A DNA stretch of 56,507 nt, the filler included, from Malassezia furfur (Eukaryota): the NCBI GenBank assembly GCA_052055015.1. It is 3 parts of 3 records of this genome, joined end to end, with 100 filler letters (N's around TTAATTAATTAA, not from the genome) between each part and the next. Parts side by side here need not be neighbours in the genome. Positions count along the whole stretch, not along the records: positions 1 to 18,788 come from JBQJIT010000200.1; positions 18,889 to 37,656 come from JBQJIT010000201.1; 1 more part is not named here. One strand, written 5' to 3'. The position numbers and the translations under genes were made by a program. Under the pieces are notes generated by a model. That model was not told the origin of the DNA. It saw only the letters and a list, made by a program, of their open reading frames with translations, and did not search any database. The stretch's first letter is position 1, and each line of letters starts with the position of its first letter. This document shows, in pieces, positions 1,542 through 34,032 of this stretch.

Positions 1542-1556
1542 GGTTGTTTCACGTGA

Positions 1557-2705: not shown

Positions 2706-2729
2706 CGTCGCCACGTGGCTCGTGCGACG
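2706..2729. promoter_or_regulatory. 24-nt divergent spacer with the palindrome GCCACGTGGC (E-box/G-box)
   Basis: CACGTG at 2712-2717, conserved at 53800-53805. Confidence 0.5.
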
Positions 2730-3491
2730 ATGGACCGCGCGCCGCTGTCGGCGCGGCGTGGGACGAGCTTCTCGCTCGGCACGCTGCTCGCCGACAGACC
2801 GCTGAGCGTCGCAGAGATGATGAGGTGGGTGTATATACTCATGCAGCGATGCGGCGACGCTCCCGAAGACAACCAACATGCGGCGGCCAACGATCTTGCC
2901 GCCCAACACGGTGGTACGTGCGCCCCTCGCGCGGTACCAAGGCGGCGGACACGACGACACGGACGAGGACTCAGAGCGCAAGCCATCGCGTGGCCCGATC
3001 GAAATGCTACACACCATTCCATGCCTCCCCGTGGCCTCGTACGTTGGCACGCTGACACAGCTTGGAGCTCGCGATGAATTTCTATGCGAAGGCACTCGGC
3101 TTTGTGCGCCGCGGCCTGCCCCACGCTAAGCAGGTGCGCATGGTACGTGGTGGGAAGGCACCGCGTATGGGTCCACGCGGCATGTTCGTGTCGTCGACCC
3201 CCGGTGTGCACGTCATATTGCGCGTCGAGGAGGGGATGCGGCCGACGCGAATCTGGATCGTAGTGCACAACGCGGACGGTGCGTGCACCATGTACTGACG
3301 CAGCGCTCTTTGACGAGATTGCTGCCAAGCTGCAGCACTATTCGCTCACGATGCGCGACTACTTTCCCCTGGAAAACTTTCTGCAAGCGCGCATCGAAGA
3401 GAAGCCGCACAACACGGCGTGGGGCACGCGTGAGTTCCGCGTGGTGGACCCGGACGAGAACGTGCTGGTGTTCTGTGAGGAACGTCTCTAA
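2730..3491 (+). CDS. Glyoxalase/bleomycin-resistance (VOC fold) protein, 230 aa, 3 introns (2825-2846, 3039-3060, 3279-3303)
   Basis: Spliced product contains IPCLPVASLELAMNFYAKALGF and TAWGTREFRVVDPDENVLVFCE. Removing the 22/22/25-nt GT-AG introns gives 693 nt in frame. Structure conserved in contig C. The start codon is less certain. Confidence 0.8.
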
Positions 3492-3507
3492 TGTACATAG
3501 AAGCATG

Positions 3508-5634
3508 CTACAGCGCCCGACATACCCCGATCAACAACGCGACCAGCACGAGCAGCGCACTCGGTCGCACGACGGCGGCCGCGTTCGCCTGTCGAAGGAG
3601 CCGGTCGACGTCCATGGCGTTGCAGTACACATGCCCGAATGCGTCGTACGCGACATAGCGCGACGGCGCGCCGCCGTACCGCAGTCCGTGCGACCCCGCA
3701 CCCCCGTTCAGACCCGCGCCGAGCCCGTCCGAACCGGCGTCCGCAAACGTGCCATAGTCGCGCTCCGCCGTCACCGTCCATTTCGGGCACATCCAATTCA
3801 TTAGCGGTGGGCACGAGCGTGTCACCATCTCGCACGTCGACAGGCAGGGGAGCAGCTCGCCGTAATCGCCCGGGGCAAACAACTCGTCGATGAACGGCTG
3901 TCGGCTGCTGTTGGGTCCGATGCGGTTCACCACGTACGGATACAAGTTGGTGTTGGCCGGCATCGGCAGACCCTCGAGGTCCGTGCCATTTTGGCTCGCG
4001 GCACTCTCTGACGGGTCCACCACGTCGGTACACCGCGGGATCGCCACGGCACACAGCCAGCTCTGATAGGCGCGCAGACAGTCATTGCACGTCGTCACGC
4101 TCGAGTACCGCCCAAACTCGTCCGAGTCGCAGGGAAAGGTACCGAGCGTCGCGCTAAAGTTGCCGTAGTTGGCCGAGACCATCTCGTTGAGCACCTCGAG
4201 CGCGTAGCTGATTGACTTGGACGGGTTGAACGGGATCGAATATGCCAGTTCGGGGCAGAATGGCACGTCGTACAGTAGCCGGCAGTTGCGGTTGCGCTTC
4301 GTAACGAACTTCACCGAGGGGTACAGCGTGCGGCTCAGCACACCGCTCGCATTCACCGACGACACGAGGTACGCCGTGTAGTTGTGGCCCGGCAGCAGGT
4401 TCGACGCCAAAAACTGCATGCGCACCTGCGGGCCCGACGACTGCTCATTCGAGTCGCTGTTCGTCGCGTTCGCCACCGACCCACGCCGCACCAGCTCGTC
4501 AAGGCTGACCATGCCCGCGGCGACGTCGCGCGCGCCGTACTGCGACCCTGGCGGCTGCATGCCGGCAGTATCGTTGATGCTCGGCGAGGGTGCCTGCGAC
4601 GCCTGCTTCTTTTGCTTGAGCATGTCACCACGGGTCACCACACTGACCGTGTTGCGGCTCGTCTCGCTGCTGTTTACATGAATCGCCTCGTCGCTGTGAC
4701 TCAGGTCCTGCCAGGTGTCAAAGATCGCACAGAACGATGAGTTGAAGTAGGTGATGGAGGATAAAGAGAATGCACCCTCGGTCGGTAGCACAATCAGACT
4801 GATGTTGGGTGCCGGTGACGTGTAGTTGAACGAGGTGAGCAATGCACTCTCGGCGTCCGCATCATTGTAGAATAAGCCGGATTCCGTCGCGACTTGTTCA
4901 AGTTGGGCTGGGTGAGTACGCCACTACGCACAGTGTGTCGATGCCGAGAGCTGGATGCGGTACACACCGTCCAGGCCGCGTGGGTCCGTCGGGGGAAAGA
5001 CCCCGATCCATATTCCGTCCTTGGAACCTTTGGGGAGCTGAACCTCGGCCCACCCGCCCTGCGCGTAGTCGACCAGCGACGAGGACAGGCCAGAGTCGGC
5101 ATTTGGACGGGGTATGCTCCATTTGTCTGACACAAAAAGGGACACGAGCGTTGCCTGTCGCGCCTCGTCTTCGTTCATGTTCAGTTCATTGAGCAACGTC
5201 GAGTTGCTTGTATTGTACGGCGGAATACGCGGGCCATCACACAGTGATAGCGACACAAAGATGGGTGTATTTATCGTTGTGTTGAACTTGAAAAAGAGGC
5301 CGTTTGTCGCGTTGATGGGCAAGTCACTGCGTACCATGACCGAGTCTTCCAGGGTATACGGTGCCGTCGTGTTCGCCTTTACGACGGGGACATTGGTTGG
5401 CTGTGGTGCGAGGCCGGTACTTGCATTTACAAAAGACGCCGTACTGAGCGTCGGGAGCTGCGTCTTGATGTTGTTTGTCGACGACTGTGTGCCGGTCGGT
5501 GGAGGTGTCCCTGACGCGCTACTGTGGCCCTTGGAGTGCCCGGACGTTGTGGACCTCGCCGCATCACTCAAGGGGAGAAGCAACAGAGATAGGCATAGCA
5601 CGAAGGCCACGAGCCTTGCGTGCAGTGCTGCCAT
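3508..5634 (-). CDS. MID1: Mid1 calcium-channel accessory subunit, 700 aa, 1 intron (4908-4931)
   Basis: N-terminal signal peptide, many NxS/T sites, Cys-rich C-terminus (NCRLLYDVPFCPELAYSIP, CNDCLRAYQSWLCAVAIPRC, ELLPCLSTCEMVTRSCP). Removing the 24-nt intron joins ORFs 4924-5790 and 3508-4842. Confidence 0.9.
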
Positions 5635-6227
5635 CGCCGGGTGGGGGGTTGGAGAAGACGGTAGGTGGAGGTCCCACGCGCCCGCTCGTGTCGCACTCGC
5701 CGTGTGCGAGCGGAGGCCCACTGGGATGTGGAGACACGCACCCCCGCTCTGGCGGCGATGCGCGCACCTGCGCGGCATTTTGGCGTCCACGTGGTCAGAA
5801 ATTACCGACTACGCGCGTCGGGGTCCTGAATACAACGCGCTCGGCCGGCCGTGGCGGCCTGCGGACGTGCAGTCGCAATTGCTGTGCGGAGATTGGTTGT
5901 GGACACGTTGTGGACAATAATTGCAGCAAGCGACGCAGGGTTGCGTTCATTTCATTCGTACATGTGGAGATTTATGGGTGCTGCGGAGATTTGTGCGGCT
6001 CCGCAGGAGGCCGCGTCAGCGATTCGCTAATAAGGCGCCGAGTGCGCACGATGGCCTTGGCGGTCTCCTGCTGCGCGCGGCGTGCAGAGAAACGCATAGT
6101 CCGGTTTGATGCGTGGTCCGGTGCCGCATTGGTGAAGCTGCTCGGTTGCGTACTCTCAATCGGCGTGGCCGAAGGCCCGCCGCCGCTGTGTCCGTTCTAG
6201 CTGGTCTATTGTACGATGGCACCTGCC

Positions 6228-7402
6228 TTACTGCTCGCCCACTTCCTGGATCGACTTGGCCATCGGCACGGCGCCCGTATCGAGGCCGGGCTCCTCCAGG
6301 TTGTGGAAGTCTGACACATAAGTGAATAGCACACATACCGAGAATCTCCGAGTACATCATTACCTTCCACGTGTCGATCGGAAGGTCGGCGTCGTTGAAG
6401 CTCCAGTCGAACGGCTCCTCTGCCTCTGGCTCGTCGGCAGGGTTGTGGTACGGCGCGAGGTAGGGGTGGCTGAGCGACTGCGCCGCCGTAATCCGCTTGT
6501 TCAGGTCAAAGACGAGCATCTTGTCGAGCAGGTCCAGCGCCTCAGGGTCCGTGTTGGGGAAGCGCTCGCGGAAGTCGACGCGTTCGCGCTTCGGCAACGA
6601 CTGGACGAATCGGAGCGTGTTTTCAGAGCAGATAGTTTGGATCACCTCGTCTGGCGGCGTGCCCAGGAGCTCGGTAATGATGGAGAATTGGTTCACATGG
6701 TCTTTGCCAGGGAACAGCGGCTTGCCCTCGAGCATCTCGGAGAAGATGCACCCCGCGCTCCACACGTCGACCGCCACATCGTATTTTTGCCAGGTCAACA
6801 TGATCTCGGGCGCGCGGTAGTACCGCGTCGAGACATAGCCGGTCATCTGCGGGTCCTGCACACGCGCAAGACCAAAGTCGCAAATTTTCAAGTCGCAGTT
6901 TTCGTTGATCAGAATGTTGCTGGGTTTCTGGGTGAGTCAAGCGACGTACCAAGTCACGGTGCACGACACCGGCAGAATGCACGTACTTAAGACCGCGCAT
7001 GATCTGGTAAAGGAAGTATTGCACAAACTGCTTCTCGAGCGGGCGGCTCGTCAGCAGACGGTGCAAGTCGGTGCCAAGCAGCTCGGTGACGAAGTACAGA
7101 TCTTCAAGGGGTGAGATGAAAATATCGCTCAGACTGATGATCTAGACGTGAGTGCGGGTCGTACGTACATTCTCGTGCCGAATATTCTTGAGCAGCTTCA
7201 GCTCACGGTATGTACGTTTCGCCAACACGGGGGTGGAGAAGGGCTTCATGACCTTCTTGACAGCCACCGAGGTGTCCGTCAGTTTGTCCCGGGCGCTGCA
7301 CACCAGGCCAAATGCGCCCATACCAACGGGTTGCAGATTCTCATAGCGTGATGTGACTTCAAAGACCGTGCCAAAGATGCTCAACTTAGTGAAGTCGGCC
7401 AT
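6228..7402 (-). CDS. HOG1: Stress-activated MAP kinase Hog1, 365 aa, 3 introns (7142-7168, 6928-6949, 6311-6338)
   Basis: [39 protein letters not shown] and the TGY activation loop ([11 protein letters not shown]). Spliced length 1098 nt in both copies. Confidence 0.97.
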
Positions 7403-7482
7403 CGTGGAGAGACGAGGAGCCGCGCGTAGAGTCGCCACGTGGGCATCCGCTGCGGGTCACGCGCATGGTGCATCGTCCTACG
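7403..7482. promoter_or_regulatory. 80-nt HOG1/SYP1 bidirectional spacer with CACGTG
   Basis: CACGTG at 7436-7441, conserved at 49091-49096. Confidence 0.5.
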
Positions 7483-9773
7483 ATGAGTGAGCCGGAATCG
7501 TCGTATGCGCCGGTGTTCGTGGTATGTATCATGCGTCCTAGCTCACGCAGCCCGCCGATCCACGCATTAGCGTACAAGCGCTCCAGACGCGGCTAAAAAA
7601 TGCCCGCATCTTTCACGAACAAATGTACGTTGCGTCGCACTGACCCAGTGCCGACTACTTCTCGGCGCGCCGCGAGGCCGAAGAGGCCTATGTGCGCCAG
7701 CTGCAAAAAATCACCAAGCGATCGTTCTTGTCAGACACAACATACCTGCCTCCCGAGTACCGTGATGTATACGACCGACTCGTAAGCGAGCTGGCCGAGG
7801 TTGCCCAGATCCACGGTCAGCTCGAGCGCCGCATCATGCGCGAATGCGAGCAACCGCTGCGCGAGGCGCCCTCTTCCGGCGAGTGGGCAAGTTTGCGGCG
7901 GTACGATGATACCCTCGCACCGATCCTCAAGGAGCTCAACTCACTCGAAAGCCAGCTGCACAAGGACCAGAAGAAGTTCGAGAGCAAGCGTACGGGAGCC
8001 CAGCATGCGAAGCTTGAGGCGACGCAACAGGCGCTCACACATGCGGTCAGCCAGTGGGATCAGAATGCGCCGCTTGCTGTGCAAGCGTACGAACGCGTGG
8101 ACCGTGCCAGACTCACGATGCTCCGCGAAACTGTACGTCAATTTTCCCGGGCGCAAAACGACATGGTCAAGGCCTTGTACGACCTGGCGGGGGAGACGGG
8201 GCATGCTGCGTCGCAGTTCAACGTGGACCACGAGATGCTCGCGTACGTAAACAACATTCGGCTGTCAGAGCGGAGCCGCGCGCTTGCACCGACGGCAGCG
8301 CTGGCGCCTCAGCCGCCGGCCGCGGTGGAAGCAAGCCAGGACCGCGCGCCGTCGCGCGGAATGAGTCAAAGACCGCCTTCCTCGCGCACACAGCGATGGC
8401 GCGATCCATGGGAGCAACATGAGGCACCTATGGGGCGCGCATCACCGCGCTTCTCGGTGCCGCTACCCAGTGCCCTGCTGCACCACTCTACGAGCCCCAA
8501 CACGACACCGATCCGCGAACACGGTATGCGCGATGCACCTAGCCCCGTGCCATCGCAGCTCACGCCCGGGCGCAGCACCACTTACGACCTGGGGGGGCAT
8601 GCAACGGCCACATCGCCCGATACGTCAATGGCGTCGCAAGCACCGCTCGGCCCAGGGCGCGTGCCGCTGGGCGACGATGAGGCAGCTGCACGTCGCAATG
8701 CGCGGCGCACCACGACGCAGCTCACTCAGGCGCCGTCGCTGCCCGACAGCCGGGAGGAGGAGGCCGCATGGGAGCGCATGCGCACGCAGCTGCGCAATTC
8801 CAGCCTCGGCATGCCCGTACCCGTGTCGCGTCGGCGCGAGTACCGCAACTCGAGTGTACCGACGATCAACCCACCGGGTCAGTCGCCCCCCGTGGAGGAG
8901 CTACGGGGTGTGCAGCAGACGTCCGAGACGGCGACACCGGCGCCGCCGCTGGTATCCACTTTTTCGCCCGCGACGATCTCGACGACACACATGTCGCCTG
9001 CGGTACATGCTGTGCCGCTCTCTGCGCGCGTTGTGGAGCGAGTCAACGTGATGTGGGTGAAAAGCGCTCTGACACGCGTCATGGTCGTCGGCGAGATCCA
9101 CCTCACGATGCTCGCCGCTGGCCCCGCGAGCGGGCGTGCACGCATCCAGCTCACGCACGCTAACCAGCTCGAAAAAGTTGCCGCACACCCTGACGTGCTC
9201 GCCGAGGTGCCTGAGGCGCCACACGTCTTTGAGCTTGATCTCGCCGAGCTCAGCCGCGCGGGCAACAACGTCGTGGCGCTGCGCTACCAGCTACACACGA
9301 GCCCCGATACCTACGCGCAATGGGCGCCCATCTTTATTGAGCCGCAATGGCGGTGCGAACCGCAGCAAAGCTCGTTGCTGCTGAACTACCGTGTCAATGC
9401 CGCATCGCAGTTGGCGGCCCGTGCGCCGCATGCCGCGTTACAGGCCGTCTCGTTCGCCGTAACACTTCCACACGAGACGCCCGTGTCGGGCGCGGTGCTG
9501 AGCCAGCCCGTGGGTGCGTGGGACCCAAGTGCGCAGCAGCTGCACTGGGAGCGCCCCACGACGCTGCCACTGGACGACACGGCGCCGAACAAGATCCTCG
9601 CGCGGTTCCCTCTCGCGACGCAGGGCACGCCGCAACCTGTGTCGGCCTCGTGGCAGCTTGCCGCGCATACTCTGAGCGACGTGGGCATCGAGGCCCTCAC
9701 GGGCGAGCAGGCGGTGGTCTTTGCGAGCGTCCACCGCGAGACGGTCGCCGGCAAGTACTTTGCACAACCGTAG
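7483..9773 (+). CDS. SYP1: Syp1/FCHO-like muniscin endocytic adaptor (F-BAR plus mu-homology domain), 745 aa, 2 introns (7522-7550, 7625-7648)
   Basis: Spliced N-terminus ..RLKNARIFHEQIADYFSARREAEEAYVRQLQK is F-BAR-like, followed by a Pro/Ser linker and a C-terminal MHD (VVERVNVMW..VVGEIHL, PQWRCEPQQSSLLLNY, KILARF, GKY). An in-frame ATG at 7465 is an alternative start. Confidence 0.8.
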
Positions 9774-9802
9774 ATGTGGAGGTAGGTCGCCTTCCGGACA
9801 CG

Positions 9803-10454
9803 ATGAGCACGGACAACCGCGATGACGACCCCTTCGTCCCGACGTCAATCGGGGAGGAGGAGACCATGGCCGAGAAATTTGTACGCAAGATGAAAAATGA
9901 CCCACTCGTGCCCATCGGTGCGTTTTCTACTGGCTGACGCAGGGTGTCTGCTCACTACCGTGGCGCTTACCTACGCCTCGATCCAGCTGCGCAAAGGCAA
10001 CCGTCAACTGTTCCAGCGCGCCCTGCGCTACCGTGTGCTATTCCAAACGCTCACTGTTGGCGCAGCAGGGGCTGGGCTGCTCATGTACGAGGCGCCCAAG
10101 ACCAAGGTCCTCCCCCCGAACGAGGACGGCACACCGGGCAAAGTGCAGTATTGGAACCAGGACAAGATTGACCAGCGCGAGACCGAAACCAAGGTCGACT
10201 GGGCCAGGAGGTACCGCGAAGCACACGCGCGTGACGAGCGTGAAAATGCTGCCATTCAGCGCATGATCGAAGAGGAGCTCCGCGCGCGCGAAGAACAGGC
10301 ACGGCGACAGCCACCGCCTCTCCCTCCACATGTTCCGGTCGAGCCCGTTTCGCAAGACGCGGCGATTCCAGAGGTGGAACAGCCCGCGCAGCACGATCCG
10401 CCGGTGCCCCCTCGCATTGGTCAGGACAAGCGCCGGTTTACGTTCCGCACGTAG
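9803..10454 (+). CDS. RCF1: Respiratory supercomplex factor Rcf1 (HIG1 domain), 208 aa, 1 intron (9918-9942)
   Basis: EKFVRKMKNDPLVPIG|CLLTTVAL..LRKGNRQLFQRALRYRVLFQTLTV is the HIG1 domain; the 25-nt intron is conserved in contig C. Confidence 0.85.
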
Positions 10455-10504
10455 CGAATATATACAGATGGGGCCGCAAGGGCCCCCTACCTTTTCCACT
10501 CCGT

Positions 10505-12558
10505 CTACGGCTGGCCGCTCACATGCCCAGCGCTCACGGGTACCGTCGGCAAGGGGGGTTTGGGCGGGCGTGTCTCGCCCTGTGCAGTCGCATGAGGCGT
10601 TAGCCCACGCGCCCATGTCTGTTCGACAGGTGCGGTCGCTGACGCTGACGACGTGAGTAGAGAATCGGTCGCAGGCACCGAAGCGCCGTCGCCCCTGTCG
10701 TCTTCGATGGCGCGACGCTTTCCTAGTGCCTTCTCGCTTGGGTGCGTCAGGTCATGCAGGGTCTCTGATGCGTCGTCAGGTGCAGGCGCATCATGCAGTA
10801 CAGGGCTCCGTAGCTGCGTCTCCTGTGCTTCCTGCATACGGCCATAGAGGTTGAGAGCTTCTCCGAGCGTGCTCAGCGATTCGAGTACATCAGCGAGCAG
10901 GGCCTCGGCACCAGCCGCCGCCTCGTCCGAGGAATGGGACAGTTCGGCGTACTCCGATGTCCATGCGAGCTCAGAAAGCAGCGTGTCTTGCGACCCCTGC
11001 ACTTTCTCCAGAAACTCGTCCACCAACGCCGAGTGGAGGCCCTCGAAAGAGAGCGTTTCGGTGAAGACCGACGCATTGGACTTGGCCAGTTGGCACTCGT
11101 GGTATACGTATGACACATGCTCCGCAGTATCTTCGGTCACAGGGTGTGCCATGGGGCTGGGCATGGACGTCGCATCGCGTACACCCAGCTCCTCGCCATT
11201 GGCTAAGTCGAAGGGCAGCGATCGGTGCGACGCACTGGTTGGCAGGCGCGACTCGGATGAGAGTGCGAGCGGAGAGACGTCGTTGGTCGTGAGCGACATA
11301 TCGCCCAGTTGTGCGTCCAGTGTCGGAGTAGCAAGCTCCGTATGATTCACGGGCGGAGCTAGGCCCTGGTCTTGCGCGGGGCGGCGGATCTCGAGCGAGG
11401 CTGGTATCGCCTGGGTTCGTGCCGGCGGCGCGGGAAGCTGCTCGGCGGGAAGGCTCCGTTGCGTGTGGTCATGAGGGTCGTGAGGATTCGTATCAAGCAT
11501 GTAGAGAGGGACAAACTGTCCATCAGCAGGGGATGGGTCAGGGCTCCCGCCGAAGAGTGCATGCTGCAATGGTTCACCTGTCTCGGCGCTGTTCTCGGGG
11601 CGTACGCGTGCCCATAGGCGTGCCACGGGGCGCAAGCGCTGTGATGTTTTGGACTGCGTGAGATAAAAAACGTACTCGATAAGCCAGTGCACTCAGCACC
11701 TGTAGCGTATCCTCCCGCAGTTCGGGGAAGGTAAGTGAGTTGTTCAAAATGTCTTCCAGAATGCCGAGCAGTTGTGTGTTGGCCGCGTACGTGCCAAACG
11801 TCCCCCCTGCTGAGAACGACCACAGGCCCCATGCCCGTACCGCACGCCGTTGCACGTGGAGGTCGCCACTCCGGAGCTCGAGACGCAGGGTGCGCACCGC
11901 CTCTTTGCTGTTTGCTTCCGACGAATGGATCAAGTCGCCCAGCGCGTGTACACGGCGCCAGTCATCAGGGCGCGGAAAAGCTCGGCAGAACATGCCTGTG
12001 TGAGTGAAAGGACGTACTGATCTCCATCGACAGCTGCTGGCTGTCGTTCGGTTCATTCTCGCGTGTTTCTTCTGGCTGTCGACGAGGCGGGTCAGACGCA
12101 TTATGCGTGCGTTTCCATTTAAACAGCCCACTTGACCGATCGCGCTGCCGCTGGCGTTCTCCGCTCGGTGCTTCGGAGGCACGCGGGTGATATACGGGAT
12201 AAGGCGACGATGTGGAATCCTCGGTGTGCGTACTTGCACCAAGATCGGTTGGACAATGACCTTGTGACCATGTACCGGAGCGCCGCAAGGGGGCGTCACG
12301 AGACCGCGGGTGCTTGGATCCATCGTTCATCAAGATCGGTCCATCTCGTGCAATGTTGCGTTCACGCCGCGCTGCGAGCCAAAAGGCTGATGCGAGGCTG
12401 TGCGTATCGCGTTCTTTGCGTGCATCGTTCGCATAGACTTCGCCGTACGTGGGATATGTAGTCTGTGCACTGCTCGTCTGCAATGTCGGTGGTTCCGCCG
12501 GCGCTGGCTCGCTATCCTCCACACGGTTCGGTGCTTTGCGCGCCAGCAGCCTTCGCAT
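10505..12558 (-). CDS. VHS + GAT domain protein (Lsb5/TOM1-like), 669 aa, 2 introns (11996-12017, 11654-11675)
   Basis: SKEAVRTLRLELRSGDLHVQRRAVRAW (VHS-like) and ECQLAKSNASVFTETL..LVDEFLEKVQGSQ (GAT-like). Two 22-nt introns join three ORF-track fragments in frame, in both copies. Confidence 0.7.
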
Positions 12559-12994
12559 CTGTGGGGCGTACCACCAAGAGCCGTGGTGGTTTAGTCAGCG
12601 TCCCTGGCGGGCTGAGTGCGAAACGTGTCGAGCACGTGCCTACCCCACAGATTATGATGTCACCGTGCCATGCCCAATGACGTTATTAGTCGAGTCAACC
12701 CAAGGTTTCGAAAGGTTGGGCTGCAATCCAGGGCACGGGGCATGCGGTCAATACGGTTGGTCCACACAGTCTAAATCTTTCTGGGCGCAATATACCCAGC
12801 GATCCATAATGACCGAACCCTGCATGCGGTGGGGCCAGGGCCAGGGAAAACGAGTTTGACCGCAAGCAGGCGATGGGCTGCTAATTCTCTGAGCCGTAGA
12901 TCCTTCCCTATTGCCACTCAATATAAGTTCGGCGTTTATACAATACGTGGATCTTGAAGATCTACTGTTCGTGTCCTCCTGCGATTGAACGGCA
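12559..12994. promoter_or_regulatory. Divergent promoter (VHS-GAT gene / Ran1-like kinase) with conserved blocks and CRE-like sites
   Basis: Blocks 12724-12751 and 12806-12845 are identical in contig C. TGATGTCA at 12655-12662; TGACGTTA at 12678-12685 (TGACGTCA at 43859-43866). Confidence 0.5.
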
Positions 12995-14098: not shown

Positions 14099-14160
14099 TT
14101 TTTTCTGGTATGACTCGATGGACACAAGAGAGTTTGTTTATGGGCATACCCTGTATATGA

Positions 14161-15025
14161 TCAGACACGAACACTACGCGCAGGGTAGTATGATACCGCA
14201 TTTGTATGCATATAGGTCGAACACATGACATAAAGGTAACGAAACCACACCAACTGCGACGCATGTTCCCGCATCGCTGCCAAAGCGCGGAGATAACGGT
14301 ACGGCGTGACGAGCGTACGCAGGTCGTCGCGAGATGTTAGCGTGTCCATCACTGCGACTAACATTCCGCCAAACTTGGTCCAAACGGAGCGCGAATGAAG
14401 AATTAGAAGATCAGGCTGTTGGACAAGGAGTGACTGGGCGCGGCGCGCACCGTGGTAAGTAGCAATGTGGTTGGAGTGCTGGGATACGCCGCGTGCGTCA
14501 AAAGTCAAGATCTGGTCAGTGTATGCCACACGTACGGCATCGACATCGCTCTCTCCAATGTGCTCTGTGATCCGTTGCGCAATGTACGTGGGGTCCCACA
14601 CCGTGTCCATGCCGTCGAGCAGGTACCTGCGTGAGTTTGGGCGCAACGCACGGATCATGCAGGCATGTAACGTTGTCAGAAGGAACACCGAGAACCTCGT
14701 AGCTCGCTAGTAGCTCCGTCTTACGTCGGTTTCCGAGCCCTAGTGCATCGCCTAGGTTAGTGCTTGCGTGATACTTACCTTGTGAGAGGCACAGCGCCGT
14801 AATGGAGACGTGTTGGTCGCGCAAGGCCAGGATCGTCGGTGCAAAAAACATGCATTCATCGTCGGGGTGCGCAGTGACGACAAGTACATGACGCCATGTC
14901 GGGTGGTACATTGCACCATCGAGGTATAAGCCCGCATACCACCACTGCAGCAGAGCTATGCTTGCGAACAGGATGACGCCTACGCGCCCCCACCGCGCTC
15001 GGCCCCCGCGTGCAAAGCGGCGCAT
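14161..15025 (-). CDS. GPI12: GlcNAc-PI de-N-acetylase (PIG-L), 262 aa, 3 introns (14752-14778, 14627-14651, 14512-14535)
   Basis: N-terminal transmembrane segment, VTAHPDDECMFFAPTI, ILTFD..GVSQHSNH and AMREHASQLVWFRYLY. Spliced length 789 nt in both copies. Confidence 0.92.
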
Positions 15026-15070
15026 GTGGAGAGAGCACAAGCCAGGCAATCACGCGCGAAACTACTTCTT

Positions 15071-15928
15071 CTACTGGGTCTTCTGCGAGCGGGTCGCAGC
15101 GCGCGTCGCATACGGACGTGCAGAGGTCTGGGTGGCTAGCACCGATTCACCACTAGCCTTGCTCGCCTGCTTGCGCTCCGCAGCCTCCTTGTAGATGTTG
15201 GACGTGAACGGTCTGGACGGTGAGTCAGGTAGTTACGTACCCTTCAAACTGCAGCGCAACGGCATACGTTACGATGACCACCAAGCTGAGCAGCAGGCCA
15301 GCTGGTTTGGCGTACCACAGTGCGACGGCGATGAAGTTGGCCGAGCTGCCCCAATACATGGGGTCGGCGACGACGTTGAAGGGGAAGCCCGTGACCATAT
15401 GGTCCATCAGGATGCCGAAGTAGTCGCCAAGGTACGTGCCAGTCACGCCCAGCACATACATGGACGAGATAACGAGCACGTTGCCCACGGCGAACAGCAC
15501 GACGGCGAGCGCACGCACGGCGTTGTTCTCCAGCGCGGGGTTGGTCGGCTGCGCAGCAAGCGCCCGGTTGTACAGCATATCGCGCAGGATGCCGAGCGAG
15601 AAGATGGTCACGGCCAATAGGTAGCAACCAAGGTACCTGCGTCCACCCAAGAGCTTGGTGATGGTGCGGTTGCGGTGTTCTGGATCAGGTGAGTCACGCA
15701 CCGTTCTGGGCAACAATGTTCCAGAAGGTCGGGTTGAAAAGGCTGCGTGAGTTGTGGCACGTACATGGAGGCCACCGCGATCCACAGCGAAGGCTGCGTC
15801 AGATCCACCATGCCCTTCACGACATAGGGACTCGCTTGGTGCGGCGTAAACAACTTCTCGTACGCGTGCTGGGCGAACGTGGCCATGGCGTCGGTGGGCA
15901 ACCCCGCGCTGCGTTGCTGAGTCAGCAT
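15071..15928 (-). CDS. OPI3: Phospholipid N-methyltransferase Opi3/Pem2, 3 introns (15743-15764, 15680-15701, 15213-15240)
   Basis: Spliced LFNPTFWNIVAQNE, LGVTGTYLGDYFGILM, GFPFNVVADPMYWGS and FEGPFTSNIY. The true start may be the ATG at 15886. Confidence 0.93.
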
Positions 15929-15957
15929 CGTGGCTTGCGTGGCACGCACCGACGACC

Positions 15958-17109: not shown

Positions 17110-17137
17110 ACCGCCGCGCCGTAGCTCCCACCTCCAC

Positions 17138-18788: not shown

Positions 18789-18888
18789 NNNNNNNNNNNN
18801 NNNNNNNNNNNNNNNNNNNNNNNNNNNNNNNNTTAATTAATTAANNNNNNNNNNNNNNNNNNNNNNNNNNNNNNNNNNNNNNNNNNNN
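18789..18888. other. Artificial contig linker
   Basis: N44-TTAATTAATTAA-N44, exactly 100 nt, with stops in all six frames; identical linker at 37657-37756. Confidence 0.98.
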
Positions 18889-19673: not shown

Positions 19674-19865
19674 ATACCCGGACTAGATGTGCGATGTTTA
19701 TAGTGGTACCGGGGGGTGGGCGACACGGGGCCAGCCGTGCGGCGCCGTGCGGAACGGTGCCGCACGCCGGGCCGCGTCCGCGGCGTCGGGCCGCACCCGC
19801 GCCCCTGGCTGCTACGCCACAGTGTATCGCACGTCTCGTTATCGTCTCGAGAGACTAGCTACGCA

Positions 19866-23780: not shown

Positions 23781-24002
23781 ACAATCGGGAGGAAAAAAGT
23801 AGTGCGACCTCTACACAAACCGTGCAGAGTCGGACGACAGTTGCAGCTTCTCTCTCTTCGAGAGGCGCTGGCGGGAACCTTGGCGCTCGGCCGCCGCGCA
23901 ATTTTTCGCGCCGGTTGCAAACGGCTGCAGACGTTTAGTCAAATTACACTACACGCACGTGGCTATGTTGGGGCCCCCAGGTGAGCCCGGATCCCCGAAG
24001 TG

Positions 24003-26313
24003 TCAGGCGCGCTTGCGCTTTGCGGCAGGCGCCGTCTTGGCCGGTGCCTTTTTGTCGGTGCCGTTCACCATGGCACCACGCAAATCATGCGCGGCTTCGC
24101 CATACAGCGGGCGCACAGGCAGCTTCCCACTCGTAGGCACCTTGTAGCGCGGCCGCTCCGGCGCCACTTCAGGCACAATGTCGGTGCTCTTGGGCTCCTC
24201 TCCGTGTACCAGATGCGCCGCGTACCACGGGCGCAGCAGGCCAATTTGTGCAGGCAAACTTGCGCGTGAGACCAATACCACGGGGGGCGGAGGCGCGTAC
24301 GTCGGTGCCACTTTGCGCTCGCCGTCGGCCACAGCAGCATTCGTCGGCGCCGCGCGGCCAAAGAACAGCCGACTGGGAACTGACAGGCCTGCGAGGCCCA
24401 ACTCACGGTCAAGACCCAGCTCACGGAACCCGAAGAAGTCGTCGCCAAGCCCCTCGGCAAAATGACCTAGCGTGAGCGCCTCACCGTCGCGGGCAAGCAG
24501 CTCGTCGTCCTCAACGACGGCGCGTCCGAGGTTCGTGAGCTGTTCACGATACGCCGACTGCAACTTTCGAAGCCACTCGCGCAAGCGCACACCGTACCGC
24601 TCCACGTCGTTTTTGATGTATGCATCAAGTTTCTGGACATGGGTGCCGCCGCTGTTGTGCAGCGCATGTACAACCATTTCTTCCGCACCCATTTCCGTAC
24701 CAAAGCGATCGCAGTAGAGGCGCAGCGTACGCGCAAGGCCCATCATATACTCGCGCGTAACGTCCGTGAGGATGTGCAGGGCATTGGCATGGCTTCCATC
24801 AAAGCCCGTGTGCGCCAGCAGCATGCGCACCTGCCACGCAATCTGCTCGCGCGCGTACCCACGTGAGAGGCGGGGGAACGGGTTGACTCGACCTGTCGCG
24901 TGGACCTCGTGTGGGGTCCTGTGTGGCTCGCTCGGAGGCCTGGATGCTTGCGCGCCGCTAGGCGAGTGCGGGGTGGTCACACGGGCACTTGTCTCGCTGG
25001 CTGCCTCGGCGTCGTCTGCAACGGCGGCAGCAGACGCACCTGCGTTGCCTTCTTCCTCTTCCCCCATGCCCTCATCCTCGTCGGACGACGCTTGCGCAAG
25101 GTCAGCAGGGATGGGTAGTTCGTGCTCGACGACATCGGCGAGCCGGAAGAATTTCTGGTGGGTATGATGCAGACGTCGCAGCGTCTGGATATTGCGCGCC
25201 ATCATGCGGGGTATTCCGCGCCGATCCATTGGCTGTCGCGAGCGCGGCGGTGTATCATGAGAAGGCGAGGTGGGATGGCGGCCTGTATAAGCCAGTGATG
25301 GCAGGCCGGCACCGACCATGGCATCGGTTCCACACGATGCCCACCACGCGTGCAACGCATCACGCGGACGCACGCTCACATCCTTACGTGACCGCTGCAG
25401 ACCAAGGGCATTACCCAATGGGTCGACGCCGCGGGCATGACCGATCTGCTCGAGCATGGCCAAGGTCGCAGGAAGCGCGCGCGTTTCGCTAGACTCAGCC
25501 TCAGCGGGGAAACGGCGCGAAAGTGACGTGCCTTGGACAGCGGGCACGGCTAGGTGAGGATCAAGGTCGGAAAAAACCAATGTCGACTCGGCACTGCGCC
25601 GCAGTGCAACGTGCTGGGCAAACGGTGCCTGCTCCTGGTCGTTTTCGTCCACCTCCATTTCGTGCACGGGCGCAGCCGGGGGCTCTGCCGGGGGCGGTGC
25701 GCTCGGTTGCGGCTCCTCGGCGGTTTTCGGCGCAGGTGGTGGCTGCCAATGGCTTAGGATATCCTTGATGTCACCCTTTTCGCTCAAAAACCCTAGCAGG
25801 TGATTGGCCTTCTTGCGCATCATCGTCGCGTTTCGACGAAGGGGGTGTTGTGGTGACGCATTGTACAGTAGACAGTTGTCCCAAATCAAATCTAGGTCGC
25901 TTTGAAATTGTCCCTTGTTCTTGTACTGTCCACTCTTGAGCTTCTTTTGCATGGTGCCGAGATCCATAGGGTTCTTGATTACTGCGGGTTAGCGTCGTCC
26001 ACCACCTACCGTCGTAGTAATCGGGTGCGTCGCGCTTGCTCACGCGCTGTAGAAATGCCTGGGAGTGTTCCTGGTGTGTCAGGAGGAGCACATACAGTGT
26101 AGTTACGAAGCTCCGTGAGGATTCGCTCCATCGACTCTTCGAACTCTTCCTTCTCGTCCTGGTGTCAGTCACGTCGCGCTCCACGTACCCTGCCACGGCG
26201 CGCATCGGTGAGCAGCTGATGTAGTTCTGCATCACCCAATGCCACGTCGCCACGATTGGCCTCGATCGCCTGAAGTAGATACTGTCTGTGAGCTTTGCAT
26301 CACACACCTTCAT
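24003..26313 (-). CDS. SPT7: SAGA subunit Spt7 (bromodomain plus histone fold), 733 aa, 4 introns (26282-26307, 26159-26188, 26071-26095, 25982-26009)
   Basis: Spliced MK|YLLQAIEANR..|..LTELRNYT|EHSQAFLQRVSKRDAPDYYDV|IKNPMDLGTM..LIWDNCLLYN; histone-fold region LLAHTGF..LTDV and GDDFFGFRELGLDRELGL. Confidence 0.88.
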
Positions 26314-26375
26314 GGCCGGGTGGGGAAGCGTACGGGCCACGTGATGGTGGGTGGAGGAAGTTTTTTTGGACAACG

Positions 26376-27464
26376 ATGAAGCGGCAGCGCACGGCGCACG
26401 GCAAGGCACCCCGGCGCGCGCCTGCATCCACGCCTGCACCTGCGTCGACGGGGGTGAACAAGGTGAAGAATGCCATTCGGCAGACAAAGCGCCTACTAGC
26501 ACGCGTATGTTGCGCCTCTTGCTCACCGCAGGACACCATCACGCCGGGCACACGGATCGAGGCCGAGCGCCGTCTTCTTGCACTACAGCGCGAGCTCGAG
26601 GAGAAGGAGAAAGCCGGAAAAGAGCGGAATCTGGCAAGCCGATACCACAAAGTCAAGTTCTTTGGTATGTTTGCGCAAGGGAACTAACCACAGAGCGCCA
26701 GAAGATCCACCGTCGTGTGCGTCAGCTGCGCCGCGAGGCAGAAAAAGATCCGAAAAAGAAGGCGGTGCGCGCAGCTCTCTACGAGGCACGCGTTCTACTG
26801 CACTATGTCATGGTACGCATCGCGACTCACACAGACCTTCCCTCATGACCAGCGCTACGTGGCCCTCTTTGCGCAGGGGAACCATGACCCTGTTCTGCCC
26901 AAAAGCGATGCATCCGACCGCGCACAGCAAAAGGCGGCTGCGTATCTCGCCCATGTGCGCAAGCAAGTGAAACGTGGCGAACTATCCGATGAGCCCGAAG
27001 TGGAGCTTGAAGCGCGCGAAGAAGCGTCGCGACAGGCACGTCGGACCAGTGGCACCAAACGAACTCGTGTCGATGACGCTTCGAACGCCCAGGCTCCCAA
27101 GCGCCGGAATGTGGCACAGGAGGCAGACGAGGAAAGCGAAGCATCGGATGCGAGTGACGCAAGTTCTTCCGGTGACAGCGACAGCGACCGCGACCGTGAT
27201 ACCAGTGACGGCGGCGAGGCAGAAAATGCAGCGCAAGGCAGCGAGACACCAGGGACCTCGTCCAGCGCCGACGCATCTGATGAAGTCACCTCCAGTGATG
27301 AATCATCCAGTGAGGAGTCATCCAGCGAGGAGTCATCCAGCGAGGAGTCGTCCAGTGAGGAAGAAGCCGTCGCACCCCGCAACGAGCGGGGTACTCGCAA
27401 GCCAGCTGCGCCCGCTGCGCCTTCCAAGCCGTCGCTCGCTGACGATGAATTTTTTGCTATGTAA
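26376..27464 (+). CDS. EFG1: rRNA-processing protein Efg1, 336 aa, 3 introns (26505-26531, 26665-26693, 26813-26834)
   Basis: KNAIRQTKRLL, RYHKVKFFE|RQK and HYVM|TFPHDQRYVALF match ribosome-biogenesis Efg1 (not the Candida transcription factor); acidic Ser-rich tail. Confidence 0.85.
27303..27362 (+). repeat. 4 x 15-nt coding tandem repeat (SSSEE) in the Efg1 tail
   Basis: tcatccagtgaggag-like unit repeated four times. Confidence 0.85.
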
Positions 27465-27465
27465 T

Positions 27466-29169: not shown

Positions 29170-29286
29170 GGTCGTTCGCCAAACCGGCGCGGCGCTGCTG
29201 ACTCATTCCTCCACAACCGGGGTGCGCCGCGGGCCCCGCGCGCCGCCAGGGCCGCCCCAGCGATAGCCATCCGCCTCCACTCGACC

Positions 29287-30924
29287 ATGCTGCGTGTGGC
29301 TGCCCGTGCGGCGTTCGTGGCTCTTGCGCTTGTCTGTGCGGTGCATGCGGCCCCTGCAGCAGTGCCGGCATTTGTACCCGGTACCTTTACCTATACGCCC
29401 AGTGGTGGTGCCGAGGCGCCGCTAGTCGAGCCGGCCAGCGTCGAGACGTTGCCCCAGCGCTATCTCGTTGCGCTTAAGCCCGGCGTGGCGACGAGCTCGT
29501 TTGCGGTGCACCATGCACGGATCGCCGACGCTCAGGCCTCGGCCAATGCCTTCCATGCGCTTAGCGGCGACGACCACGGCGTGCGCCACGTGTATGACCT
29601 CAATCAGCAGGTGATCGGCTACGCCGGCCGCTTCTCCGACGACGTCCTGGCGTACATCCGCGCGCAGCCCGAGGTGGAGTTCGTCGAGCTCGACCAGGTG
29701 GTGCGCACCACGATGCTGCCGCAGGGTGCAGAGCGTGTCGCGGAGATGCCTGCGCCGTCCGCCACCGCCGCCACGCTGCCCTTCCCGCCTTGGAGCGACC
29801 CGTACAAGCACCAGACGGAGACGGGTGCGCCGTGGGGCCTGGCGCGCATCTCGCATCGCGCGGGCCTGTCGCTCGGCACGTTTAACAAATACGTGTACGA
29901 GGCAATCGGTGGCGAGGGCGTCACGGCCTACGTGATCGATACCGGCATCTACACGCAGCACGAGGACTTCCAGGGCCGCGCGCGCTGGGGCAAGACGATT
30001 CCCCTGAACGACGTGGACGCGGACCAGCACGGTCACGGCACGCACTGTGCCGGTACGATCGGCTCGGCTACGTACGGTGTCGCGAAGAAGGCCGAGCTTG
30101 TGGCGGTCAAGGTGCTGGGTGCCGGCGGCCAGGGCTCCATGTCGGACGTCACCGCCGGTGTGTTGTGGGCGGTCGCCGACGCACAGCGGATCAGTGCTGA
30201 GCATGCTGCGAACCCCCACACGGAGGCCGCGCAAAAGCACCGCGGCTTTGTGGCCAGCATGTCGCTTGGCGGCTCCAAGTCGCCCGTGCTTGACCGTGCG
30301 GTGAACGGTGCGGTGGAGACCGGCATGCACTTCACCGTGGCGGCCGGCAACGAGAACCAGGACGCATGCAATGTGTCTCCGGCCGGCGCCGAGGCGCCGC
30401 TCACGGTGGGCGCGTCGACGATCGCCGACCAGCGTGCCTACTTTAGCAACATTGGCCCGTGCGTCGACATCTTTGGCCCCGGCCTCAACGTACTCTCCAC
30501 GTGGAACACGGGCCGGCGCGCCGTCAACACCATCTCGGGGACGTCGATGGCGACGCCGCACATTGCGGGGCTGCTTGCCTACCTGCTCTCGATCTACGGC
30601 TCGGCCGACTTTGAGGCGGAAGGCACGCCGGCGGTCGATGAGGCCGCGGTGCAGTACCGTGCGGTGCGCTCGTGGGCGACGCAGGCGCTCGCAGCGCTGC
30701 ACCCCTGGGTGCCCGCGGCGCTGCGCCCCGCGTGGGAGCTGTGGCTGCCCGCGGTGCGTGCGCCTGTGGTGGCCAAGGCCGACGATGGGATCAGCAGCGC
30801 ATTGACGCCCAAGCAACTGCGCCGGGCGCTGCTGCGCTTTGCGTCTGACGGCATGCTCGAGGGCCTGGACCACACCACAGTGAACCGGCTTGCGTACAAC
30901 AACGCGACGACGCTGTCTATGTAG
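29287..30924 (+). CDS. PRB1: Subtilisin-like (S8, proteinase K family) protease, vacuolar proteinase B-like, 545 aa
   Basis: Signal peptide, I9 propeptide, APWGLARISHR and the catalytic triad VIDTG / HGHGTHCAGT / SGTSMATPH. ATG at 29287; the longer ORF-track extension is antisense to AsnRS. Confidence 0.92.
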   Translation: MLRVAARAAFVALALVCAVHAAPAAVPAFVPGTFTYTPSGGAEAPLVEPASVETLPQRYLVALKPGVATSSFAVHHARIADAQASANAFHALSGDDHGVRHVYDLNQQVIGYAGRFSDDVLAYIRAQPEVEFVELDQVVRTTMLPQGAERVAEMPAPSATAATLPFPPWSDPYKHQTETGAPWGLARISHRAGLSLGTFNKYVYEAIGGEGVTAYVIDTGIYTQHEDFQGRARWGKTIPLNDVDADQHGHGTHCAGTIGSATYGVAKKAELVAVKVLGAGGQGSMSDVTAGVLWAVADAQRISAEHAANPHTEAAQKHRGFVASMSLGGSKSPVLDRAVNGAVETGMHFTVAAGNENQDACNVSPAGAEAPLTVGASTIADQRAYFSNIGPCVDIFGPGLNVLSTWNTGRRAVNTISGTSMATPHIAGLLAYLLSIYGSADFEAEGTPAVDEAAVQYRAVRSWATQALAALHPWVPAALRPAWELWLPAVRAPVVAKADDGISSALTPKQLRRALLRFASDGMLEGLDHTTVNRLAYNNATTLSM

Positions 30925-30955
30925 ATCGAACGACTCTTGTATTTCCACACCGCCC

Positions 30956-32053
30956 TCAGAAGTCGGGGAAGAAGCCGGGAAACTCGTCCGGCGCATCGAG
31001 CCGCCCGTACTCGGCCAAGTCCACCTCGGGGTACTTTTCAAACTGGCTCGCATCGCCCTCGACGGCGATGTTGGGGATGTAGGGCGCCGGGATCTCTTTG
31101 CGGTACAGGCAGTCCCAGTCGATCTCGGCGAACCACATATGCGAGAAAATGTCGCGGCTGCCGTGCTGCAGATTGCCGAACCGCTTCGAGAGGTCTGCCG
31201 TCAGCAGCGAGCGCAGCAGGTCCTTGGCGCCCACCTCAAAGAAGCTCGGGTACTGCACATTGCCCGCGAGAATCTTTTCATAGAGCTTGATCGGGTTTCC
31301 GTCCTCCGTGTAGAACGGCGGATAGCCTGCCAGCATCTCAAACAGCAGCACTCCGAGAGACCACCAGTCGACACTCTTGTTGTACCCGCGCGCGCGGATC
31401 ACCTCGGGCGCAAGGTAGTCGGGCGTACCACACAGCGTCCAGCACACACCAGTGGAGCCCGCCATGTCTTTGGCAAAACCAAAGTCGATCAGTTTGAGGT
31501 GTCCGTCGGCGCCTAGCAGGATATTCTCGGGCTTGAGATCCCGGTAGATGATGTCGTGCTTGTGCAAGAAGTCGATGGCCAGCGCGACCTCAGAGATATA
31601 GAATTTGGCGACCTGATGAGGGAAGCGCCGCGACTGCCGCAGCAGGGTAAACAGTTCGCCGCCAGGTACAAAGTCCATGACGATGTACAAAAATGTGGGA
31701 TCCTGGAACGTGCCCCATAGATTGATCAGGAAGGGATGCCGCACCATTGACAGCACATGGTGTTCGTTGTTTGCATGCTCAACCTGCTTCATTTTCACCA
31801 CATGCTGCTTGCGCAGCACTTTGACCGCATAGAAGCGCTGGTTGTGCTGGCTGCGCACGAGGTGCACGCGCCCAAACGAGCCGGTGCCGAGCGTGCGCAA
31901 AAATTGGAAATCCGAGAGCTTGTACCGCCCGCCGAGCTTCCGCACCGGAAGACTATTCACCACGCGCGGCGTGGTCGAGGCCATCTCGGAAGTGGCAGCA
32001 ACGCCGCTGCCAGCGAATGCCTCGGTCGCCGACGCGCCGGGTGTCGGAATCAT
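30956..32053 (-). CDS. cAMP-dependent protein kinase catalytic subunit
   Basis: [55 protein letters not shown] and the C-terminal FxxF (FPDF). Start is 32053 or 31984. Confidence 0.93.
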
Positions 32054-32141
32054 GTCCCAGCCCGTCACTCGCCAAAACCGTCGGGAGCGTGTCGCACGGG
32101 CAGCCTAGTGCTGACTAAAAATACAGCCCTCGCCAGTTGCC

Positions 32142-32785
32142 ATGACGACGCGACGGGCGATCTCCGCCGCGACACTGCGTGCGGTGCGCGTACGCGCACC
32201 CATGAGCGCGGTCGCACGCGTATCCTACCCTGCGCTGCCTTTTGTACGAACAACGCCTTCCGTGGGAGTGCTTGTGCGCCACTATACGAGCGAGTCTGCG
32301 TACACGGCTGCGGACCTGTCCGCACAAGACTACAACCGGCGCGTCGACGCGTCGCTCGACGCCCTCACAGAGCAGCTTGAGGAGCTGCTTGAAACAGAAG
32401 ACATTGAAGAGATCGAGCGCACGCGCGGGAGCGGCGGGTCGCTCAGTGACTGGGACGTTGAATACGCCGTACGTTCTGGGCGCACGAGTGCCCAATCTCT
32501 CGAAACCATACTAACCAACAGACGGGGGTACTCAACCTGCGTTTGGGCTCGCTGGGCACCTATGTAATCAACAAGCAGCCGCCCTCAAGGCAGATCTGGC
32601 TCTCGAGTCCAACGAGGTACGTGCGCAACAGGAGCTGACTTCGAAGTGGCCCCAAGCGGTTTGACTATGACGCCGAAAAAGACGCATGGTTCACGTACAA
32701 GGACGGCCAACTATACCTTCTTCACGAGCTGCTGGACACCGAGCTGAGCGCCGTATTCGGCAAGACCCTCACTGTGGAGCTCTAA
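32142..32785 (+). CDS. YFH1: Frataxin, mitochondrial, 186 aa, 2 introns (32469-32521, 32617-32646)
   Basis: Arg-rich presequence; spliced [44 protein letters not shown]. Confidence 0.93.

Positions 32786-33990: not shown

Positions 33991-34032
<42 letters not shown>

Follow-up and report, generated by a model that had tools for sequence, protein, structure and literature searches.

Very short U2-type introns in a Malassezia furfur genome, with a lower edge better described by two spacings than by total length

The window, by which the whole analysed stretch of DNA is meant (56,507 nucleotides, nt; Malassezia furfur assembly GCA_052055015.1), carries 27 very short introns in 11 genes. Together with introns from the rest of the genome, they suggest a lower edge of intron size that is better described by two spacings, a branch-point adenosine (branch A) at position 16 or later and at least 4-5 nt from there to the acceptor AG, than by total length. 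The window consists of three contigs (1-18788, 18889-37656 and 37757-56507) joined by linkers of N, and the genome comprises 13.68 Mb in 1856 contigs. M. furfur hybrids exist; six aligned contig pairs share 86-89% identity, which indicates two subgenomes. One gene outside the window matches an annotated M. furfur protein with 100% identity over its first 121 residues. Judged from sequence, the genome is of the M. furfur type with two subgenomes, and the first and third contigs of the window are homeologs. Haploid Malassezia genomes measure 7-9 Mb (PMC7426719; this and the other papers are cited here from parts of their text).

Introns were called with a self-trained gene model, which has a flat intron-length prior of 12-45 nt and whose calls in the window were accepted at a score above 2. 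Each of the 27 introns listed below (coordinates in the window, strand, identity) was called by this model, and further evidence is given in its line.

2825..2846, +, 22-nt intron 1 of a glyoxalase-like gene (2730-3491); homeolog 22 nt; open reading frame restored; no Pfam match across the junction
3039..3060, +, 22-nt intron 2 of the glyoxalase-like gene; homeolog 22 nt
3279..3303, +, 25-nt intron 3 of the glyoxalase-like gene; homeolog 25 nt; last exon with a weak Glyoxalase_2 match
4908..4931, -, 24-nt intron of MID1; homeolog 23 nt
6311..6338, -, 28-nt intron 3 of HOG1; homeolog 26 nt
6928..6949, -, 22-nt intron 2 of HOG1, between HRDL and KPSN; Pkinase profile contiguous (124 to 125); homeolog 22 nt
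7142..7168, -, 27-nt intron 1 of HOG1; Pkinase profile contiguous (59 to 60); in-frame stop if retained
7522..7550, +, 29-nt intron 1 of SYP1/muniscin; homeolog 30 nt
7625..7648, +, 24-nt intron 2 of SYP1/muniscin; homeolog 24 nt
9918..9942, +, 25-nt intron of a HIG1-domain gene; homeolog 25 nt
11654..11675, -, 22-nt intron 2 of a VHS-domain gene; homeolog 22 nt
11996..12017, -, 22-nt intron 1 of the VHS-domain gene; homeolog 22 nt
14512..14535, -, 24-nt intron 3 of a PIG-L gene, with a 4-nt tail after branch A; aligned homeolog 24 nt
14627..14651, -, 25-nt intron 2 of the PIG-L gene; aligned homeolog 24 nt
14752..14778, -, 27-nt intron 1 of the PIG-L gene; aligned homeolog 27 nt
15213..15240, -, 28-nt intron 3 of a PEMT (OPI3-like) gene; homeolog 28 nt
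15680..15701, -, 22-nt intron 2 of the PEMT gene, with two branch-like motifs (A at 12 or 17); homeolog 22 nt
15743..15764, -, 22-nt intron 1 of the PEMT gene; homeolog 22 nt
25982..26009, -, 28-nt intron of a bromodomain gene
26071..26095, -, 25-nt intron of the bromodomain gene
26159..26188, -, 30-nt intron of the bromodomain gene
26282..26307, -, 26-nt intron of the bromodomain gene, in which an AG 3 nt past branch A is skipped; gene model only
26505..26531, +, 27-nt intron 1 of an EFG1-family gene for ribosomal RNA processing
26665..26693, +, 29-nt intron 2 of the EFG1-family gene; Efg1 profile from 58 to 60
26813..26834, +, 22-nt intron 3 of the EFG1-family gene
32469..32521, +, 53-nt intron 1 of frataxin, with a 7-bp hairpin inside
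32617..32646, +, 30-nt intron 2 of frataxin, with an AAG acceptor; Frataxin profile from 67 to 70
18789-18888 and 37657-37756, artificial contig linkers, N44-TTAATTAATTAA-N44
37757-56507, inverted homeolog of 1-18788, about 87% identical, with the second copies of the first 18 introns at 40782-53692

Between 2825 and 32646 the gene model returned, at the chosen threshold, exactly 27 introns spread over 11 genes, measuring 22 nt (eight introns), 24 (three), 25 (four), 26 (one), 27 (three), 28 (three), 29 (two), 30 (two) and 53 nt (one); five further calls, all scoring 1.1 or less, were dropped; four of them belong to the duplicated piece, and the homeolog supports none of these. This independent recovery agrees with a preliminary description of the same DNA, which had counted 26 introns of 22-30 nt and one of 53 nt, and its eight 22-nt GT-AG segments were all found in place and on the matching strands. 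In each of the eight, a CTNAY motif allows the branch A to be set at position 17, which leaves 5 nt to the end of the intron. GT and AG termini are present in 27/27 introns, and a strict donor-branch-acceptor motif gives 18 matches in the window and none in the reversed window. The homeolog keeps the GT, a branch-like motif and the AG for each of the 18 introns that have a homeolog, while length differs in four of them, by 1-2 nt, as had been described for several introns. That each removal restores a conserved motif, which had also been claimed, holds for Hog1, Efg1 and frataxin, where the Pfam profile positions continue over the junctions as listed (21 of 30 exons gave a match in this check); for several other introns it is the open reading frame alone that is restored. 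As a side observation, the hairpin of the 53-nt frataxin intron (7 base pairs, bp; -12.4 kcal/mol) stands directly after the donor; hairpins as a general means of shortening long introns gave no signal (27 long spacers, mean z -0.09).

The donor matrix of the gene model is GTACGT-like and the branch motif is RCTNAY, degenerate at the base before the A (CTGAC 155, CTCAC 143, CTAAC 70, CTTAC 40); position +4 of the donor is C in 416/554 introns and A in 11/554, although U6 is canonical. The absence of a polypyrimidine tract noticed earlier extends to the genome sample: a run of four U after the branch occurs in 3/554 introns, and the interiors of longer tails are made of C163, G139, A106 and T105. 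U12-type introns have an extended RTATCCTT donor and a TCCTTAAC branch, and this class is ruled out by the donor and branch motifs found here. The termini, a U2-complementary branch, the restored frame and protein and the genes of the machinery were all found, which places the segments, on these features, among U2-type (major-spliceosome) introns.

The length distribution was followed genome-wide with the strict motif GTRYGT-N(k)-CTVACNCAG, using the reversed pattern as a control. Between 15 and 40 nt, 3357 matches were obtained against 64 in the control; 604 of them fall at 21 nt (control 1) and 692 at 22 nt (control 2), while lengths of 15-20 nt together contribute 119 (control 15). At 20 nt, eight matches were present among the first 100 listed, roughly ten, and 0/8 examined were called as a 20-nt intron. 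Thirty-five distinct acceptors of short motifs were inspected (26 from the first 30 loci and nine chosen for strong donors or 20-nt length): 28 were called inside an intron of 21-29 nt, and one more has an upstream GTACGT donor, giving 24 nt. On 750 kb, a sample in which homeologous pairs are counted twice, the gene model predicted 636 introns in 462 genes (about 0.85 per kb and 1.4 per gene, with an intron GC content of about 56%), with 73 at 21 nt, 116 at 22 nt, 77 at 23 nt and none at 19-20 nt; the median is 24 and the mode 22. Contigs C5, C9 and C14 (217 kb) had been picked after many 21-nt matches were seen there; without them, 30, 77 and 53 of 455 introns measure 21, 22 and 23 nt, and the median is 25. 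Introns of 12-19 nt from the gene model were not accepted: of its ten calls at 12-18 nt, nine have a length divisible by three, most score low, and the 16-mer lies close to a doubtful start. When introns were shortened in silico, the model recovered 62/62 at each length from 15 to 20 nt; the edge is thus not a detection limit in coding sequence.

These counts leave the preliminary description with a sharp lower edge, as opposed to a smooth spread far below 22 nt, but move its place. No intron shorter than 22 nt occurs in the window, where the lack of 21-nt introns among 27 has a probability of 0.04-0.16 at the rates seen elsewhere in the genome; beyond it, the floor at 22 nt gives way to abundant 21-mers and to the rare 20-nt introns described below. 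The 21-nt class is sustained by proteins of solved structure, since read-through of three stopless 21-nt introns leaves gaps of 7, 7 and 8 residues against MOB2, NAA20 and lanosterol synthase (three of three in-frame cases tried). In 13 homeolog pairs with 21 nt on both sides, the GT, positions +5/+6, the CT and A of the branch and the AG agree in 12-13 pairs, as compared with 3-8 pairs for the positions of the spacer. Lengths differ in 30 of 149 homeolog intron pairs, which were drawn from search matches (contigs C190-C199 gave none). An excess of in-frame stops in introns of 3n length (60/164 against 88/352, p = 0.009) was not used, the comparison being confounded by the easier detection of stop-bearing 3n introns.

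The two spacings emerge when branch and acceptor are considered separately. In 610 kb, GTAYGT followed by CTVAY, with no condition on the AG, places the branch A at positions 10 to 15 in 3, 3, 6, 0, 2 and 3 cases and at positions 16 and 17 in 48 and 58, against a control of about 2.4 per position; the edge at 16 recurs for tails of 5 and of 6 nt. Among 560 confident introns of the gene model, the branch A stands at 15 in none, at 16 in 93 and at 17 in 112. The tail after it measures 5 nt in 327/554 introns and 4-8 nt in 511/554; it is 4 nt long in seven and 3 nt in none, and four AGs at a tail of 3 nt are skipped in these 554 introns. Donors at the edge are stronger: GTACGT is found in 68/93 introns with the branch A at 16 against 216/397 with the branch A at 17-25 (p = 0.001), and a G at +3 in 2/93 against 62/397 (p = 1e-4).

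A branch A at 16 or later combined with a 4-nt tail predicts rare introns of 20 nt (16+4). The motif with a 4-nt tail has 36 matches genome-wide against 11 in the control, distributed as two at 16 nt, three at 17, none at 18-19, eleven at 20, two at 21, eight at 22 and ten at 23 nt. All eleven 20-mers read GTACGT-N6-CTCACCAG and were called by the gene model as 20-nt introns with the branch A at 16; they fall in seven genes, four of which were seen in both subgenomes, and one of the seven contains two more 20-mers with GTACGC donors. Conversely, none of the 16-17-nt matches examined (four of five, including one in an ARF gene) was called. The 20-nt intron of PPIL4 is the best documented: the RRM profile passes from 33 to 35 across the junction, the joined motif is present in 92/120 homologs, and the annotated M. 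brasiliensis PPIL4 protein equals the spliced product at this point. In Bmt5 and Chs5, the exons downstream of the 20-nt introns start at profile positions 7 and 14; another gene with a 20-nt intron presumably encodes a VWA domain. No intron below 20 nt was supported by the genome-wide motifs or by the 750-kb gene model. On these sequence signals, the common minimum is 21 nt (16+5), with rare introns of 20 nt (16+4) that carry near-perfect signals.

Some observations stand beside these. A 17-nt intron-like segment with the branch A at 12 is identical in both subgenomes (C2:48843-48859, minus strand; C63:14898-14914, plus strand); it belongs to the 5' leader of a gene for a secreted peptidase-like protein, where a pyrimidine run precedes it and the ATG follows some 12 nt later. 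No donor was found within 30 nt upstream, and the segment may either break the rule or form the end of a longer intron in the leader. Locus L177 contains a comparable 17-mer, also outside predicted genes. The lengths of adjacent introns within genes are correlated (rho 0.50, n=207; 0/500 within-contig shuffles reach it); in the 750-kb sample, intron lengths differ between contigs and track intergenic distance across contigs (rho 0.54). Contigs C196 and C199 show long intergenic gaps, low GC content and almost no introns.

The preliminary description had pointed to U2AF and the small nuclear RNAs (snRNAs) as possible sites of change, and the outcome differs between the two. U6 is present in two copies with a canonical ACAGAGA box and AGC triad, and U2, which was found once whereas U6 and U1-70K were found twice, has a canonical GUAGUA; a U6 change matching the +4C donors and a change in U2 branch pairing are thus ruled out. 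U2AF65 is present and is still recognisable as a three-domain ortholog (RRM1, RRM2 and UHM), but its RNP1 motif in RRM1 reads ESRAVLEF where human structures have KNFAFLEF. In a set of the 120 best homologs plus the query, 20 proteins make up a Malassezia group (six named Malassezia species, 13 other proteins), which forms one side of a branch with an SH-aLRT (Shimodaira-Hasegawa-like approximate likelihood-ratio test) support of 100 in a quick tree of 40 rows that included 20 of the 101 others. The aromatic positions of the RRM domains stack on uridines. The RRM1 aromatic triad is intact in 0/20 proteins of the Malassezia clade against 99/99 scorable others, and the RRM2 aromatics in 4/20 against 101/101. 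Mean identity within the Malassezia group is 0.49 for RRM1, 0.64 for RRM2 and 0.66 for UHM, as against 0.67, 0.79 and 0.67 in the 44 next-ranked proteins, which are smut-fungus relatives where named; the N-terminal region measures about 140-170 residues in Malassezia and 265-350 in most named smut relatives. From this pattern we infer a functional loss of RNA binding by U2AF65 in the Malassezia clade. Such decay of the RNA-binding face supports the altered 3' splice-site recognition that had been proposed earlier.

Taken together, these are most probably ordinary U2-type introns of a two-subgenome, M. furfur-type genome, which compaction appears to have pressed against a two-spacing wall peculiar to this lineage. 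A floor of total length at 22 nt, acting as the steric minimum of the spliceosome, would suit the window, with 8/27 introns at 22 nt and none shorter, and also the mode of the 750-kb sample; at the DNA level it is refuted by the 604 strict-motif 21-mers against one control match, by the gaps against homologs of solved structure that confirm three 21-mers and by the eleven 20-mers, of which the one in PPIL4 is confirmed by homologs. Least credible of all is that the segments stay unspliced, as small coding insertions, frameshifted pseudogenes or assembly errors: 49/64 confident 21-nt introns are indeed stopless and could be read through, yet signals are kept while spacers have diverged between the subgenomes, retention would shift the frame of essential genes in both subgenomes, removal closes the alignments to Pfam profiles and solved structures exactly, and 5271 of 5350 introns of M. 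sympodialis, with a mean of 30 bp, are supported by RNA sequencing (PMC5389616). It is also improbable that no physical wall exists and that packed signals and drift produced the pile-up as a matter of history, through birth size or a past sweep of shortening. The variation of lengths by gene and contig (adjacent introns, rho 0.50) would fit such a local mutational history; however, packed signals need about 15-16 nt, whereas positions 7-11 vary freely in sequence yet keep a set minimum number, the strict motif has roughly ten matches at 20 nt as against 604 at 21 nt, and insertions and deletions are common above the wall, as the 30/149 homeolog pairs indicate.

A weightier alternative, although still an unlikely one, accepts both spacings and sets the wall after catalysis, at Prp43/Dbr1 release or debranching of loops below 16 nt, or in a Malassezia protein landing on the linker. 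The edge does sit on the loop, from the 5' splice site to the branch, and not on total length, no explanatory change was found in U2 or U6, and other lineages splice smaller loops (PMC9505925). Against this, the stronger donors at position 16 point to recognition and favour a limit at the assembly stage over one at release or debranching, since debranching should not depend on +3/+4, and the linker sequence is not conserved.

Several points weigh against the two-spacing wall itself. Branch points were assigned by motif, and in 10/560 confident model introns the best branch motif lies at position 14 or earlier. The reach of the gene model is introns of coding sequence, with those of untranslated regions outside it, and six of the 35 inspected short-motif acceptors are not explained by nesting: two are homeologous 18-mers, identical, in frame and stopless, which are probably coding, one is antisense to a gene, and three are 17-mers outside predicted coding sequence, two of them being the identical homeologous pair in a 5' leader mentioned above. 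By themselves, the 149 homeolog pairs are not numerous enough to demonstrate selection against deletions. As to U1 snRNA, Rfam RF00003 gave no match among the 41 of 173 candidates scored, and none of 26 matches to a pattern of 5' end plus loop was recognisable as U1; since U1-70K is present twice, loss of the U1 snRNP is unlikely, and the U1 snRNA is probably a divergent form. Introns of S. pombe often lack a tract although U2AF65 is conserved there (PMC8624252), so that loss of the tract alone does not require a change in U2AF65. Finally, the 10-11-nt lariats of Stentor make 16 nt a property of the lineage and not a chemical limit.

With these reservations, we incline to a specific form of the two-spacing wall, in which a Malassezia spliceosome would act as a ruler on about 5,000-6,000 introns per haploid genome, with a fixed minimum of 16 nt to the branch A, a 3' site chosen by proximity and the reading of the tract given up through genus-wide decay of U2AF65. 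U1 would bind GUACGU at positions 1-6 and then be replaced by the canonical ACAGAGA box of U6; a linker of free sequence would follow the donor, and RCUNAC would pair with the canonical GUAGUA of U2, the length of the linker being probably what lets the donor and branch helices be held together. Introns would thus be defined by U1 at GUACGU and by SF1/U2 at RCUNAC, with the branch site driving recognition and U2AF65, its UHM kept, probably working as a bridge between SF1 and U2AF35. Branching would yield a loop of at least 16 nt, and the first AG at least 4-5 nt past the branch A would be docked by proximity with no tract; genome compaction would shrink introns until the linker between donor and branch became too short. 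That splicing proceeds in the cell as predicted, that these branch points are used and that the cause is steric, we infer from the signals described above.

The lower limit of intron size, and the step that imposes it, have been studied mostly in ciliates, nucleomorphs and parasites that do not lend themselves easily to manipulation. M. furfur can be cultured and transformed (PMC5654937), and with thousands of introns at the wall it would be a workable fungus for testing the smallest removable intron. The ruler gives a prediction sharp to one base: a branch A at 15 should fail and at 16 work, and a tail of 3 nt should fail and one of 4 nt barely work; U2AF65 is a candidate for a co-evolved factor. 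If the ruler is real, a culturable and transformable basidiomycete would stand at a one-base-sharp physical limit of intron definition, with the 20-nt introns as its natural edge cases.

The same introns may affect annotation. In two M. furfur PPIL4 models, six conserved residues are absent just after the 20-nt intron, and Malassezia proteomes may hold many errors due to tiny introns. These two public models lose conserved residues after both the 20-nt and a 23-nt intron, consistently with such errors, and a read-through PPIL4 reading frame of a related organism has 7-residue insertions at both intron positions, that is, introns of 21 nt. The PPIL4/Cyp6 gene itself (L140:1138-2305 and L145; contigs C53 and C94) shows no cyclophilin domain here; in all named Malassezia matches the precomputed Pfam annotation shows only the RRM, while full-length smut-fungus matches carry both domains. 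Other observations in the window concern repeats: a perfect 40-nt inverted repeat (37363-37402 and 37617-37656) reaches the contig end and is probably an assembly artefact, a coding repeat with a 15-nt unit (A-A-E/D-K-A) lies at 22195-22740 on the minus strand in what we take to be an eIF4G-like gene, and a Q-rich coding repeat at 33900-34365 on the plus strand in a presumably Spa2-like gene, both names resting on motifs.

As the preliminary description had acknowledged, short introns are a published trait of Malassezia. M. sympodialis has 5350 introns with a mean of 30 bp, 99% of them supported by RNA sequencing (PMC5389616); those of M. restricta have a mean of 37.2 and a median of 30 (PMC9241646), and the main mode in M. 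globosa is 35.7 in Joint Genome Institute models (Gotoh, PMC6157073 supplement). A review speaks of very short Malassezia introns (PMC7426719), and the minimum intron has been set to 15-20 in Malassezia annotation (PMC6473144). These relatives resemble the present genome in very short introns and similar density; the present introns have a median of 24-25 and a mode of 22, and the parts of those papers cited mention no minimum, branch spacing, signal anatomy or U2AF65. The cited parts of PMC8476143, PMC3560662, PMC5654937 and PMC10581693 likewise hold nothing on intron minima, and a 2026 survey that names ciliates, microsporidia, dicyemids and myxozoans for ultra-short introns does not, in the text available, mention Malassezia among them (PMC13644364). 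No report of the 20/21-nt edge, the 16-nt spacing or U2AF65 decay in Malassezia was found in a search lying mostly outside the subscription literature. Comparative surveys of splicing factors exist. While short Malassezia introns are already known, the two-spacing ruler and the decay of U2AF65 were found in no paper searched.

Among other systems, myxobolids, Dicyema, microsporidia and Rozella, the last with modes at 21 and 26 (PMC6157073 supplement), share the size class (median 22-27 nt), the tendency of short introns to neighbour short ones and the presence of U2 and U2AF; however, the signals of myxozoans and Dicyema are reduced to GTa..AG with U2AF described as conserved (PMC13644364), whereas in Malassezia the signals stay strong and the RNA-binding face of U2AF65 is decayed. 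Yarrowia lipolytica, Trichomonas vaginalis and Giardia lamblia have a constrained distance between branch and AG without a tract (Irimia and Roy 2008, PMC2483917), which resembles the anchoring of the branch a few bases from the AG seen here (4-8 nt in 511/554); they are intron-poor with a near-invariant branch, unlike the 636 introns in 462 genes and the degenerate RCTNAY of this genome, and Yarrowia and Trichomonas introns are longer (table in PMC2483917), whereas here the 5' spacing is also at the wall. The Mud2-type system of S. cerevisiae is similar in its recognition driven by the branch site, with the UHM kept and the tract weak or dispensable (PMC8624252), but differs in that the U2AF65 of Malassezia is still a recognisable three-domain ortholog. 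Stentor coeruleus, whose AU-rich introns of 15-16 nt form loops of 10-11 nt, shares the 5-nt tail after the branch A, the conserved snRNAs and a proposed steric limit on a tight lariat (PMC9505925). Unlike its near-single intron length, lengths here extend from 20 to 30 nt and more with a long right-hand tail, and these introns have a loop of at least 16 nt, a GC content of about 0.56 and a strong consensus at both donor and branch.

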